From Pelagibacteraceae bacterium AG-422-B15 (lineage in GTDB: Bacteria; Pseudomonadota; Alphaproteobacteria; Pelagibacterales; AG-422-B15): a DNA stretch of 64,000 nt. The position numbers were made by a program, and so were the translations under genes. Location: assembly GCA_003213715.1 (NCBI GenBank), contig QCMN01000002.1:10038-74037 (forward strand), read 5' to 3'. Of this stretch, positions 50,047-54,293 are shown in pieces. A model generated the notes under the pieces. That model was given only the letters and a program-made list of their open reading frames with translations. It had not been told where the DNA came from and ran no database searches. How positions within the stretch are numbered: position 1 is the first letter of the stretch; each line of letters starts with the position of its first letter.

Positions 50047-50877
50047 ATGTTAAGAAAATCAGCTAGTGATATAAAATCTCTCAAAAGAAAGAGTCCAATT
50101 GTATGTCTAACTGCCTATACGGCACCAATTGCCAGAGCTATTGACGAACAGGTTGATTTAATGTTGGTTGGAGACTCGCTTGGTATGGTTCTTTATGATT
50201 ATGAGAATACACTGCAAGTTACGCTTGAACAAATGATTAAACATGCAAAATCCGTTGTTGGAGCTTCAAATAAATCTTGTGTAATTGTTGATATGCCATT
50301 TGGAACCTATGAAGAATCTGTTGAAAAAGCATTTATGAATGCTGCTCGTGTTATGAAAGAAACTAATTGCAACGGCGTTAAGCTTGAAGGCGGTCAAAAA
50401 ATGTCCAAAACAATTGAACATCTTACTAAAAGCTCAATTCCCGTCATGGGCCATATAGGACTTCAGCCACAGAGTGTATTGATTGATGGAGGATATAAAG
50501 TAAGAGGAAAAGTAAAATCTGAGTGGCAAAAATATATTGATGATGCAATTGCTGTTGAAGAAGCGGGAGCATTTTCAGTGGTTTTAGAGGGTATGGCTGA
50601 GCCTTTAGCTGCAGAAATAACTTCGATTTTAAATATTCCTACTATTGGAATAGGAGCATCTCCAAATTGTGATGGCCAGATATTAGTAACAGAAGATATG
50701 TTGGGATTAACAAACGTTGCTCCAAAATTTGTCAAAAAATACGTTGATTTAGATAACACTATTAAGAAAGCAGTAAGTAAGTATGCTGAAGAAGTTAAAG
50801 ATAGAACTTTTCCTTCATCAGACCATATCTATCATATGCGTCCACAGATTGTAAGTAATAACGGTAAAGATCAATGA
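50047..50877 (+). CDS. panB: 3-methyl-2-oxobutanoate hydroxymethyltransferase
   Basis: CLTAYTAPIA, LVGDSLGMV, VKLEGG and GHIGLQPQS blocks. Confidence 0.9.
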   Translation: MLRKSASDIKSLKRKSPIVCLTAYTAPIARAIDEQVDLMLVGDSLGMVLYDYENTLQVTLEQMIKHAKSVVGASNKSCVIVDMPFGTYEESVEKAFMNAARVMKETNCNGVKLEGGQKMSKTIEHLTKSSIPVMGHIGLQPQSVLIDGGYKVRGKVKSEWQKYIDDAIAVEEAGAFSVVLEGMAEPLAAEITSILNIPTIGIGASPNCDGQILVTEDMLGLTNVAPKFVKKYVDLDNTIKKAVSKYAEEVKDRTFPSSDHIYHMRPQIVSNNGKDQ

Positions 50878-51506
50878 GTGATATTTTAAGACAGGTCGAT
50901 GAAGATCTAAGAAAAGAAAAACTGTCTAATCTTTTTAAAAAATACGGTTTATATGTAATTTTAACTCTAGTGATAATAATAGGGTCAGTTATCGGATATC
51001 AAGTAATGGGTTCAATTGATAAATCAAAAAATGAAAAACTCATTGAAACATATATTAAAGCAACAAACAGCAAAAATATTTCAGAACAATATTCTTTATT
51101 AGATGAGCTAATTAACGCTGATAACAACTATATATCAAGTATAGCTGAATTAAAAATTGCAAATTTAAAGATAGAAAATGGGAATATTAAAGATGGGATT
51201 CTTGATTTAGAAAAATTAACTGACGATGAAAAATATGATCCAATAATTGCAGATTTAGCAACATATTTTCTACTTTTATCAAAAATTGATAATTTGAGCG
51301 AAGAAGAATTTATGAGCTATCTCACTGATGAAAGAATGCGTGATAGTAACTTCAAATATCTATTTAATGAACTTATCTCATTTAAAAAGCTTATTCTTGG
51401 AAAAAATGAAGAAAGTAAAAAAAATTTCCAGAATTTAATCAATAATCCAGATGTCCCTGTAGAGATTAAAATAAGAGCTAACAAATTTATTGAAATTATA
51501 AATTAG
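50874..51506 (+). CDS. YfgM-like membrane-anchored TPR-like protein
   Basis: N-terminal TM anchor plus a helical domain. The position upstream of bamB-der matches the conserved yfgM-bamB-der order. Confidence 0.4.
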   Translation: MSDILRQVDEDLRKEKLSNLFKKYGLYVILTLVIIIGSVIGYQVMGSIDKSKNEKLIETYIKATNSKNISEQYSLLDELINADNNYISSIAELKIANLKIENGNIKDGILDLEKLTDDEKYDPIIADLATYFLLLSKIDNLSEEEFMSYLTDERMRDSNFKYLFNELISFKKLILGKNEESKKNFQNLINNPDVPVEIKIRANKFIEIIN

Positions 51507-51507
51507 C

Positions 51508-52806
51508 ATGCTCAACAAATCATATATATTTTTATTTATATCTTTCTTTCTTATTTCATGTTCCGGGAATGATGAAACCAATGAAACTGCCAGTGGCTTT
51601 CCTGTTTTAAGTTACAGTGCAGAAATCTCTGAAACTCTAAATCTTGATCCTGGTGACATACTGATAAATGAACCAAAAGAAGTAAATTTTTGGTCTCAGC
51701 ATTTTTTGAATCCATCAAACGATCTAAATAATATTTACTCAGATGCCTCTTTTAATGATAAGTCAAAAATTATTTCTGGTAAAAAAGGGCCAGTAAATAT
51801 TATACAACCCATATTTTTTAACGATAATCTGTGCCATGTGTTAAGCCAGGGCTATATTGAATGTGTAGATACCTTAACAAGAAAAACATTGTTCAAAGTA
51901 GATGTTAGAATTGAGGGAATAAAAAAATATGAGATTGTTAGAGGCGGTATTGCCTATTTTGATAATCAATTAGTGTTTGTAGATGGATATGGTCAAATAA
52001 AATTATTAAACGCTGAAGACGGTAAAGAAATTTGGTCAACAAAAATAGAATATCCAATTTTATCGCCACCGCTTATATATAGAGGATACATATATTTTAT
52101 TTCAGCTGACAACAGAATTTTTTCAATTGATGTGACAAGTGGAGAAGTAAATTGGTCATTTCAAACAATTTCAGAAACAAAGAAAAATTTATTTACCTCA
52201 TCTCCAGTAGCATTCGAAAATACAATTATTGCCCCTTTTAGTAATGGAGAGTTGGTAGCTTTTATTTTTGATACTGGCCAGCCTATCTGGTCAGAAAATG
52301 TCTCAAAAATATCAATGGTCAGTAATTTTGATATTAAAGATATATCAGCTAGCCCTGTGGTATCAAACAATACTATTTATTCATTAAGCTCGAATGGAAA
52401 GCTTGTTTCTGTTAATGCCACTAACGGACAGAGAAATTGGGCGAAAGATTTGTCAGGGTATAGAACGCCAGTTATTACAGGGAATCAAATATATATTATT
52501 AATGAAGATGGAAAATTAATTTGTTTGAACAAAGATAGTTCAGAGGTTTACTGGATTACTGAACTATCAAAGTATAAAAAAGGTCAAAAGGCTGAAAATT
52601 TAAATCTTTGGCTAGGTCCTTATTTAATAAATAATTTAATTTATAATATTTCATATTTTGGTGAGTTAAAAGTAGTTTCACCCATCTCAGGCGAAATACT
52701 TTTAACCGAGTCAATTGGAGTTAAAGGTGCATTAGTCCCACCTATAATCCTGTCTAATTCAATTTATTTGTCTGACGAAAACTCCAACGTTTATGAATTT
52801 AAGTAA
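51508..52806 (+). CDS. bamB: Outer-membrane assembly lipoprotein BamB (PQQ-like beta-propeller)
   Basis: Lipobox FLISCSG, repeated G.V.W blocks (GKEIWS, GEVNWS, GQPIWS, GQRNWA, SEVYWI) and synteny with der. Confidence 0.7.
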   Translation: MLNKSYIFLFISFFLISCSGNDETNETASGFPVLSYSAEISETLNLDPGDILINEPKEVNFWSQHFLNPSNDLNNIYSDASFNDKSKIISGKKGPVNIIQPIFFNDNLCHVLSQGYIECVDTLTRKTLFKVDVRIEGIKKYEIVRGGIAYFDNQLVFVDGYGQIKLLNAEDGKEIWSTKIEYPILSPPLIYRGYIYFISADNRIFSIDVTSGEVNWSFQTISETKKNLFTSSPVAFENTIIAPFSNGELVAFIFDTGQPIWSENVSKISMVSNFDIKDISASPVVSNNTIYSLSSNGKLVSVNATNGQRNWAKDLSGYRTPVITGNQIYIINEDGKLICLNKDSSEVYWITELSKYKKGQKAENLNLWLGPYLINNLIYNISYFGELKVVSPISGEILLTESIGVKGALVPPIILSNSIYLSDENSNVYEFK

Positions 52807-53608
52807 AATTAATATAGGCATTATTGGAAAGCCGAATTCTGGAAAATCAACATTATTTAATACATTGCTTGGTGAGTATATTTCACCTGTTGGCGATGAA
52901 TATGGATTAACAAAATCCCTCATTAAACAAAAATTTACTCACAAAAATTTCGAATTTATTATTGTTGATACGCCTGGGCTGCGAAGAAGAAGTAAAGTAA
53001 AAGAAGAGCATGAATTGGCTCGCAATTCAGAAGTTATTAAAATAATTAATAATGTCGATGTCACAGTACTTTTAATCGACTCACTAGAAGGTATTACAAG
53101 ACAAGATTTTCGTCTTGCAGATTTAGCATTAAGTAAACATAAAATTTTATTTTTTTTATTTAATAAGTCCGATATTCTTGATGATAAAAGAAAATACCAG
53201 TTAAACATCAAAAAACATTTACGCAACAATTATAGTAAACACAAATTAATTAATATTGATTTTATTTCTGCAAAAAATAAAACAAGAATATCAAATGTTT
53301 TAAAAGAAATTATTCTAAAAAAAGAATTGATTTCAATAAAAATTAATAAACAAAAACTAAACAAATTTATTAACTATTTGAACAAAAAATCAACGTTACC
53401 ACGATTTAATAAAATAGAAATAAAACCTAAATATATTGTTCAATTAGAAAATAAAATTCCAAAGTTTAAAATATTTATAAATATTCAGAAAAAACCACCA
53501 CAATTATTTCAAAAATTTTTTGATAATTCTTTTAGAAGCTATTTCAAACTTGATGGCGTACCAATTTTGTATGATTTCAAAACTTCAAAGAATCCTTATA
53601 TCAGGTGA
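52793..53608 (+). CDS. der: Der/EngA-like GTPase consisting only of the second G domain plus the KH-like domain
   Basis: G1 is GKPNSGKST, G2 is GLT, G3 is DTPG, G4 is NKSD and G5 is ISAK. The Der-type C-terminus is ...FRSYFKLDGVPILYDFKTSKNPY. Only 271 aa, and the start overlaps the bamB stop by 14 nt. Confidence 0.7.
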   Translation: MNLSKINIGIIGKPNSGKSTLFNTLLGEYISPVGDEYGLTKSLIKQKFTHKNFEFIIVDTPGLRRRSKVKEEHELARNSEVIKIINNVDVTVLLIDSLEGITRQDFRLADLALSKHKILFFLFNKSDILDDKRKYQLNIKKHLRNNYSKHKLINIDFISAKNKTRISNVLKEIILKKELISIKINKQKLNKFINYLNKKSTLPRFNKIEIKPKYIVQLENKIPKFKIFINIQKKPPQLFQKFFDNSFRSYFKLDGVPILYDFKTSKNPYIR

Positions 53609-54293
53609 TTTCGATTATTTCTCCTGTACCAGCTTCCTTTAAAATATAATTTACAATTTTAGCAGCTACTTCTTTTGGATCACTTATCTTAGATTTATCC
53701 TCGCCAGGCATTATGACATCTCTTAGTTTTGTATTAACGGCAAGTGGACAAAAAATACTTGTTTTTATATTTGTACCTTTGTTTTCTTTTGAATAGGTCA
53801 ATAAAAGCTCATTTAACGCTGTCATAATAGGCTGATAAATGCCCCAGTAATATTCTTTTGAAGGGTCTTTTAGTGAGGAAACTGCAGCTATATAGGCATT
53901 ATTTGAACTTTTGAGCAATGAATGAAAACTCTTAACCATTCTAAAATTCGATAAGAAATTCAAGTTTATAATATTCTTAAAATTCTCTAGATCGATTGAC
54001 TCAACAGGAGAAAGTTCGTTAATAATTCCTGCTGAAAGAACTAATATATCCAAGGAAGTATCTTTGACCTGTATTTGTTTAGCCAAATTCTCAATTACAT
54101 TTTCATCACATAAATTTAAAGGAACAATTGTACACTCACAATTATTTTCAATTATTTTGTCATGAACAATTTCAAGTTTTTGTACGTTTCGAGAACATAT
54201 GTATATATGTTTAGCATAGGTAGATAACTCTATTGAAATTTCTTTTCCTATTCCTGAGGACGCACCTGTTACAAGGCAGTTAAGTTTTTTCAT
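53601..54293 (-). CDS. Short-chain dehydrogenase/reductase
   Basis: VTGASSGIGKEI cofactor motif. 230 aa. Confidence 0.75.
   Translation of the reverse strand: MKKLNCLVTGASSGIGKEISIELSTYAKHIYICSRNVQKLEIVHDKIIENNCECTIVPLNLCDENVIENLAKQIQVKDTSLDILVLSAGIINELSPVESIDLENFKNIINLNFLSNFRMVKSFHSLLKSSNNAYIAAVSSLKDPSKEYYWGIYQPIMTALNELLLTYSKENKGTNIKTSIFCPLAVNTKLRDVIMPGEDKSKISDPKEVAAKIVNYILKEAGTGEIIEIT

Follow-up and report, generated by a model that had tools for sequence, protein, structure and literature searches.

Within a 64,000-nucleotide stretch of the genome of Pelagibacteraceae bacterium AG-422-B15 (hereafter ‘the window’), a string of three plus-strand genes, yfgM-bamB-der, ends in a der (engA) gene of just 271 amino acids (aa) with an ATG start (52793..53608, + strand). 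Der/EngA is defined, and indeed named (‘double Era-like’), by its tandem GTPase domains, GD1 and GD2; it is treated as a universal and essential bacterial GTPase, with the paired G domains as its defining puzzle, and it serves as a marker gene both for bacterial phylogeny and for estimates of genome completeness. The product encoded in the window, which we refer to as the short Der, comprises only a G domain equivalent to GD2 (residues ~4-180; 52802..53332, +), with motifs G1 to G5 and both potassium-loop asparagines in place (as judged from Pfam and the secondary structure of a predicted model), and the Der-specific, KH-like C-terminal domain (residues 183-263; 53339..53581, +; PF14714).

The string opens with a yfgM-like gene for a 210-aa membrane TPR protein (50874..51506, +; Pfam TPR_21 and DUF2659), followed by bamB, the conserved upstream neighbour of der (51508..52806, +; 432 aa; TIGR03300, E-value 8.1e-48; Pfam PQQ_2, 5e-45). 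Coordinates and neighbouring families thus agree with the initial annotation of the locus, which had placed a 271-aa open reading frame (ORF) behind yfgM and bamB, and so does the 14-nucleotide overlap that it gave between the end of bamB and the start of der (52793..52806, +, from the ORF coordinates). It had also held that GD1 is not encoded here, and this stands: the match of bamB to TIGR03300 runs to profile position 376 of 377 (NCBIfam), the der ATG is preceded by 15 open codons without a further start codon (giving a 286-codon frame with a single start candidate), and the sole other plus-strand ORF, inside bamB, is of 41 aa. As bamB is complete up to the overlap and the open frame ahead of der is this short, no sequence is left at the locus to encode GD1. 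Neither a frameshift nor an assembly error was found at the bamB-der junction, the layout of which is the same in 12 independent assemblies.

On the other side, a gene of the SDR family (53601..54293, - strand) converges on der, with an overlap of 8 nucleotides between the two 3' ends (53601-53608), so that there is no room for a terminator between them. The G+C content of der (24.0% for 52793-53605) compares with 33.1% for the window as a whole and 30.9% for the adjacent bamB, and the richness in lysine, asparagine and isoleucine remarked upon in the initial annotation is borne out, these three residues making up 37.3% of the protein (predicted isoelectric point, 10.1) as against 18.9% of the GD2-KH part of Bacillus subtilis EngA (6.1). 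The AT- and lysine-richness of the short Der is unusual even against its own genome.

The short Der is a GD2-KH module

The Der profile TIGR03594 (NCBIfam) matches the protein with an E-value of 3.6e-62, but only across positions 175-432 of 432, and the whole-protein score of 210.8 bits lies under the equivalog cut-off of 306.7. Pfam finds one MMR_HSR1 domain (residues 8-125) in place of the two G domains expected of a Der, together with the complete Der-specific KH_dom-like domain (PF14714; 5.5e-13; 49.5 bits against a cut-off of 27.3; profile positions 1-81 of 81). The short Der hence fails the defining feature of its family, the tandem G domains, and keeps the rest, as had been proposed from its resemblance to GD2 followed by a Der C-terminus. 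All of the motifs quoted in the initial annotation are present at the residues given, namely GKPNSGKST (12-20), GLT (38-40), DTPG (59-62), NKSD (124-127) and ISAK (158-161); G2 is represented by Thr40, and the potassium-loop asparagines by Asn15 and Asn23.

Alignment to characterised Der proteins, one of the checks that had been suggested, covers GD2-KH and nothing ahead of it. Residues 6-259 correspond to residues 176-429 of B. subtilis EngA without a single gap when set against solved structures; residue 6 pairs with residue 203 of Escherichia coli Der (490-aa numbering), and the alignment to Thermotoga maritima Der begins at residue 180. The G domain aligns with both G domains of B. subtilis EngA, at 117 bits for GD2 and 48 bits for GD1. 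An AlphaFold2 model, built from a family alignment of 34 sequences, is a confident one, with a predicted local distance difference test score (pLDDT) of 88.7 and a predicted template modelling score of 0.86. When this model was compared with the PDB using Foldseek, all of the 18 top matches were chains of Der/EngA/YphC or of the mitochondrial relative mt-EngA, the best being ribosome-bound YphC (9bsl_W; E-value 3.3e-22; template modelling (TM) score 0.83; root-mean-square deviation 3.1 Å). TM scores against the GD2-KH part of Der/YphC structures range from 0.77 to 0.85, against 0.57 (with a deviation of ~20 Å) for Era. Taken together, the short Der is the GD2-KH module of Der from which GD1 and the inter-domain linker have been cleanly removed.

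Tests for artefact, decay and a split gene

Three explanations had been put forward for a der gene of this length: that GD1 is encoded elsewhere as part of a split gene, that the gene is decaying, or that the lineage makes do with a minimal Der. Our evidence supports the last of these.

That the gene is a pseudogene in decay, or that a frameshift or an error of assembly masks GD1, might be suspected from the sub-threshold Der score and from the eventual loss of der in the crown genus Pelagibacter (described below), but both ideas are refuted by the evidence and merit next to no credence. The ratio of non-synonymous to synonymous substitution rates (dN/dS) between the window gene and its orthologs is 0.04-0.13 (pairwise, at unsaturated dS values of 0.12-0.44); the comparison omits the Fonsibacter-like and HIMB114-like genes, whose G3 motifs (DSGG/DLGG) were missed by the motif search. 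Across 34 sequences, with identities to the short Der reaching down to 49%, little or no variation is seen in the GKPNSGKST motif, Asn15, Asn23, Thr40, DTPG, Lys125 and Asp127 of G4, and Ser159 and Ala160 of G5, or at many positions in the KH-like domain. The family is a large one, with 315 protein clusters matching at E <= 1e-10; among the 120 of these that were listed, all but five fragments are of 271-285 aa, at identities down to ~50%. As for an artefact, the same 271-aa gene (92-99% identical) is found in 12 other single-cell or metagenome assemblies (the records nearest to the window being single-cell genomes titled ‘uncultured Pelagibacteraceae bacterium AG-...’), closed genomes, including those of isolates, also carry the short form, and the intact bamB leaves no spare sequence in which GD1 could lie hidden. 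In one genome from the same taxonomic family as the window, the Der match (G048:C32:18581-19072) falls in a 158-aa frame with three internal stops (one TAG and two TAA), and represents either a pseudogene or a poor contig.

A split gene, with GD1 supplied from elsewhere and joining in trans, could not be excluded from the window's own genome alone, as this assembly (1.09 Mb in 36 contigs) is 85.5% complete. A six-frame search of it with the Der profile returned the short der and five other G proteins; of these, Era alone, in a lepB-rnc-era-recO arrangement, matched the GD1 portion of the profile strongly. No second, full-length der, which would have made the short gene a paralog, was found by this search. 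Because of the incompleteness, we extended the search to nine genomes, closed or nearly so, in which the short form is present, and no detached GD1 was found in their six-frame translations at E <= 1e-3; besides der, the profile picked up Era, HflX and Obg (each confirmed by its NCBIfam model) and frames of the size of MnmE, IF2, LepA and YchF. The return of nothing but other known G proteins refutes a split gene at this sensitivity, and we give the idea next to no credence.

Distribution in Pelagibacterales and losses in Candidatus Pelagibacter

A comparison of der lengths across the order, also suggested at the outset, gave no Der longer than the short form. In a first sample of 41 relatives, all Der matches were confined to ~173-432 of the profile, and the open frames holding them measured 272-290 aa; one genome (G009) had seemed to offer a longer Der in a 397-aa frame, which on direct reading proved to be a 289-codon frame with a normal 277-aa der. 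In a wider sample of 251 Pelagibacterales genomes from 10 genera, none carried a two-domain Der and none scored above the TIGR03594 cut-off. The short form was found in 37 of the 251, belonging to six genera and both families and including closed genomes; the other four sampled genera gave no Der match at E <= 1e-35. Full Der above the cut-off was present in 194 of 201 other Alphaproteobacteria sampled. Two low-scoring members of this outgroup, G290 (L051; 1.4 Mb, closed) and G282 (L052; 0.5 Mb), were considered as further cases of short Der and rejected, since their matches span both G domains (from profile position 3 or 5 to 431, in frames of 375 and 425 aa, the 375-aa frame being that of the 0.5-Mb genome); they hold strongly diverged two-domain Der proteins that score 170-182 bits, below the cut-off. 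In three draft alphaproteobacterial genomes (G422, G435 and G458; 96-99% complete, in 30-90 contigs) the profile met with cross-matches of the Era and MnmE kind but with no Der, which may reflect assembly gaps or further losses. Among the best 150 matches from an exhaustive search of 1.84 billion cluster representatives there was one full-length short cluster (277 aa) along with fragments, the rest being two-domain proteins of 423-638 aa matched through their C-terminal parts only.

The gene is the ortholog of der by its position after bamB. The order yfgM-bamB-der is kept at a Fonsibacter-like locus (L047), and the adjacency of bamB and der at an HIMB114-like one (L048); the names Fonsibacter lacus and HIMB114 for these g4 and g2 loci are inferred from the 90%-identity clusters into which the adjacent purF genes fall. 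A closed outgroup genome, whose Der has both G domains, also has a gene for a bamB-like lipoprotein (without a family match) next to der. This shared gene order supports vertical descent of the short Der, and as the short form occurs in both families, the most parsimonious account is of a single deletion of GD1 that took place before the radiation of the Pelagibacterales (SAR11) and became fixed in the order. The genes at L047 (2964-3803) and L048 (2291-3112) have DSGG or DLGG at G3, rather than DTPG or DTAG; the DxxG core is retained and the otherwise conserved threonine is gone. Members of the Fonsibacter-like cluster are labelled in public sources only as ‘GTP-binding protein’ or ‘GTPase’.

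The genus Candidatus Pelagibacter (g3), two of whose sampled genomes are those of Candidatus Pelagibacter sp. HIMB1506 and RS39 (by exact protein identity), has gone further. Seven closed g3 genomes are without Der, the profile returning at E <= 1e-5 only frames of the size of MnmE, IF2, Obg, YchF and LepA. The KH_dom-like model found nothing in nine of 10 g3 genomes, even at E <= 1, and in the tenth a sub-threshold match (E-value 0.013; 16.3 bits) to an 80-aa frame with an internal stop. The 1.2-Mb genome of RS39 (G028; loci L079-L138) was searched locally, all but its last 90 bases: tblastn with the short Der of three SAR11 lineages matched MnmE and YchF, through their G domains, and nothing else, and the top hit of an unfiltered hidden Markov model of the SAR11 family was MnmE, at 36 bits. 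All 10 g3 genomes have bamB, and at the two Pelagibacter loci that we read the genes immediately after it are a 143-aa ORF and zapE, without der. This ORF (L044:2893-3324 and L045:2814-3245), which sits in the place of der, falls into a cluster (90% identity; 6419 members) annotated as ‘hypothetical protein’ and matches no NCBIfam family.

Other GTPases of ribosome assembly are missing too. To our knowledge, Era is usually held to be near-universal and essential; it is absent from nine closed g3 genomes. In RS39 (G028, 697318-698627) recO directly follows rnc, from which we conclude that the rnc-era-recO operon has had its era gene excised; in the other SAR11 genera checked era lies directly 3' of rnc, and in the window's own genome recO comes after era. 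YihA/EngB was found in none of the 16 Pelagibacterales genomes tested and is present in the outgroup genome G290. A check for HflX was positive in a single g1 genome (G041), and negative in the sister family and in the 85%-complete genome of the window, while Obg is kept, with confirmed matches in g1, g3, g4 and g7 genomes. We read this pattern as a stepwise shedding of assembly GTPases within the Pelagibacterales, in which the single-domain Der is an intermediate state.

Proposed function of a Der without GD1

Synthesising these observations, we consider it probable that the short Der is a real, functional and vertically inherited Der ortholog, which lost GD1 and the linker before the SAR11 radiation, and, as part of the same explanation, that Candidatus Pelagibacter proper later deleted the remaining der, and era as well. 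That the short Der may bind the 50S subunit in a GTP-dependent way and take part in its maturation is suggested by the behaviour of laboratory truncations and by the conservation of Glu74 and Arg248, the counterparts of two residues that bind 50S in E. coli, Glu271 and Arg443, both invariant in the 34-sequence alignment. An E. coli EngA without GD1 (ΔGD1-EngA; 213-503, as numbered in the 503-aa form) associates with 30S, 50S and 70S particles in the manner of the GDP:GTP state, and, unlike the full-length protein, binds purified subunits in vitro (PMC2673443). The GD2-KH part of B. subtilis EngA is stable and binds GDP and GMPPNP with normal affinity; it hydrolyses GTP ~150-fold more slowly than either the whole enzyme or GD1, and potassium stimulates the reaction through two conserved asparagines (PMC3466195). 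On the ribosome, GD2-KH acts as a single rigid body, KH lying among the helices of the peptidyl transferase centre (PTC) and GD2 beneath a displaced H68, and GD1 is the mobile, nucleotide-responsive part, touching H82, H88 and L1 (PMC4245960). More recently, GD1 has been described as an anchor of the L1 stalk that may also chaperone h78, the body of EngA as preventing premature folding of h68-69, and activation as probably due to a ribosome-induced pseudo-dimerisation of GD1 with GD2 (bioRxiv 10.64898/2026.02.15.706057).

On this basis, we propose a model for how the short Der might act. In its GTP state the protein would bind pre-50S particles. Its KH-like domain would lie at the PTC helices, and its G domain at h74/75, h68 and uL2; in this position the protein could serve as a placeholder that delays the folding of h68-h71. 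With GD1 gone, the RNA-binding face of the KH-like domain would never be masked, such that binding may be constitutive, no longer subject to gating through the nucleotide state of GD1. The anchor at the L1 stalk would be lost, and so would activation through the GD1-GD2 pseudo-dimer. Release would then rely on slow, potassium-stimulated hydrolysis by the single G domain, which might be bearable in a very slow-growing oligotroph, and the highly basic surface of the protein may offset the rRNA contacts that went with GD1.

Several points weigh against a conserved role of this kind. In E. coli, Der is reported to work in vivo only when neither of its G domains is impaired (PMC4245960), such that a GD2-KH protein is insufficient in the E. 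coli background. Two further E. coli residues involved in 50S binding, Arg403 and Arg404, are replaced in the short Der by Ile208 and Glu209, although both also vary in B. subtilis. The AT-richness of der relative to the window could indicate a weaker compositional constraint, and the fact that Pelagibacter lives without Der could mean that the role of the short form is marginal, or something other than 50S assembly.

This last thought can be taken further, to a conserved GD2-KH remnant that has left 50S maturation for another ribosome-linked role, for instance at 30S or 70S particles or at the peptide exit site. It would fit the binding of ΔGD1-EngA to 30S and 70S besides 50S, and of the KH domain alone to 30S (PMC2673443), the report of a second, co-translational site for EngA (bioRxiv 10.64898/2026.02.15.706057), and the possibility that, with Pelagibacter lacking any Der, 50S assembly in the order is already Der-independent. 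However, the reported exit-site mode uses contacts made by GD1 (to h24 and uL22), which the short Der does not have, the residues of the PTC mode are the very ones (Glu74 and Arg248) that stay invariant, and der keeps the translational coupling to bamB that it has in other bacteria; we think such a change of role unlikely.

Alternatively, two copies of the short Der might sit together on the pre-50S particle, with the second G domain standing in for GD1 and restoring activation by pseudo-dimerisation. In ribosome-bound EngA, GD1 and GD2 are indeed related by a pseudo-two-fold, with switch I of one opposite that of the other (PMC4245960; bioRxiv 10.64898/2026.02.15.706057), and the G domain of the short Der aligns to either one. 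Set against this, there is no obvious place for the KH domain of the second copy, and potassium did not drive dimerisation of B. subtilis EngA or of its GD1 (PMC3466195), which leaves a homodimer less likely still.

A broader proposition, towards which we lean by a small margin only, is that a free-living bacterium can dispense with the tandem-GTPase design: GD2-KH would have sufficed across the order since its origin, and Pelagibacter, which has neither Der, Era, YihA nor HflX, would manage with Obg alone of the five classical assembly GTPases checked. If this is true, the ribosome-assembly pathway has been rewired or relaxed in a manner not described for any cultured bacterium. A natural single-domain Der, under selection across an order that is among the most abundant on Earth, also offers a handle on what GD1 is for, be it gating of the KH domain, anchoring of the L1 stalk or pseudo-dimer activation. 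The dispensability of ‘essential’ assembly GTPases becomes testable along a graded series, from the two-domain protein of other Alphaproteobacteria through the one-domain form of most SAR11 to the absence of Der in Pelagibacter, coupled with the loss of Era, YihA and HflX. On a practical level, TIGR03594 and the Era markers fail systematically in SAR11 and so bias estimates of completeness, and concepts for Der-targeted antibacterials assume a universality that fails in SAR11. We found no published account of a natural single-G-domain Der, or of the loss of Der or Era in SAR11, in the full-text literature (coverage of subscription journals being incomplete), nor do the SAR11 genomics papers PMC3448164 and PMC12789548 mention a Der or Era that is truncated or absent.

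Among known systems, the closest is Der/EngA/YphC itself (2HJG, 1MKY, 3J8G and 9BSL), which shares GD2, the KH-like domain and the position after bamB with the short Der, and differs in possessing GD1 and the GD1-GD2 linker (~170 residues in all); the short Der is also much more basic than the GD2-KH part of the B. subtilis protein. The laboratory truncations, ΔGD1-EngA of E. coli (213-503; PMC2673443) and GD2-KH of B. subtilis (PMC3466195), contain the same domains, and by alignment the N-terminus of the short Der falls within a few residues of both truncation boundaries. They are, however, engineered pieces of parents that need both domains in vivo, whereas the short Der is natural and under purifying selection order-wide.

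Era (TIGR00436) presents a similar plan, with a single TRAFAC G domain ahead of a KH-type domain that binds RNA, in ~280 aa, but its C-terminal domain is a type-II KH that binds 16S rRNA; the Era model gives the short Der 60.7 bits (cut-off 116.25), through the G domain only, and the genome has its true Era at another place, on contig C26 in the rnc-era-recO operon. Finally, the mt-EngA of kinetoplastid mitoribosome assembly intermediates (6YXX, 7AOI and 7AM2) is likewise a diverged relative of Der that works on a reduced ribosome. Its GD2-KH part superposes on the short Der with TM scores of 0.80-0.85, but mt-EngA is longer (497-576 aa) rather than shorter, and the short Der matches only its C-terminal ~265 residues.

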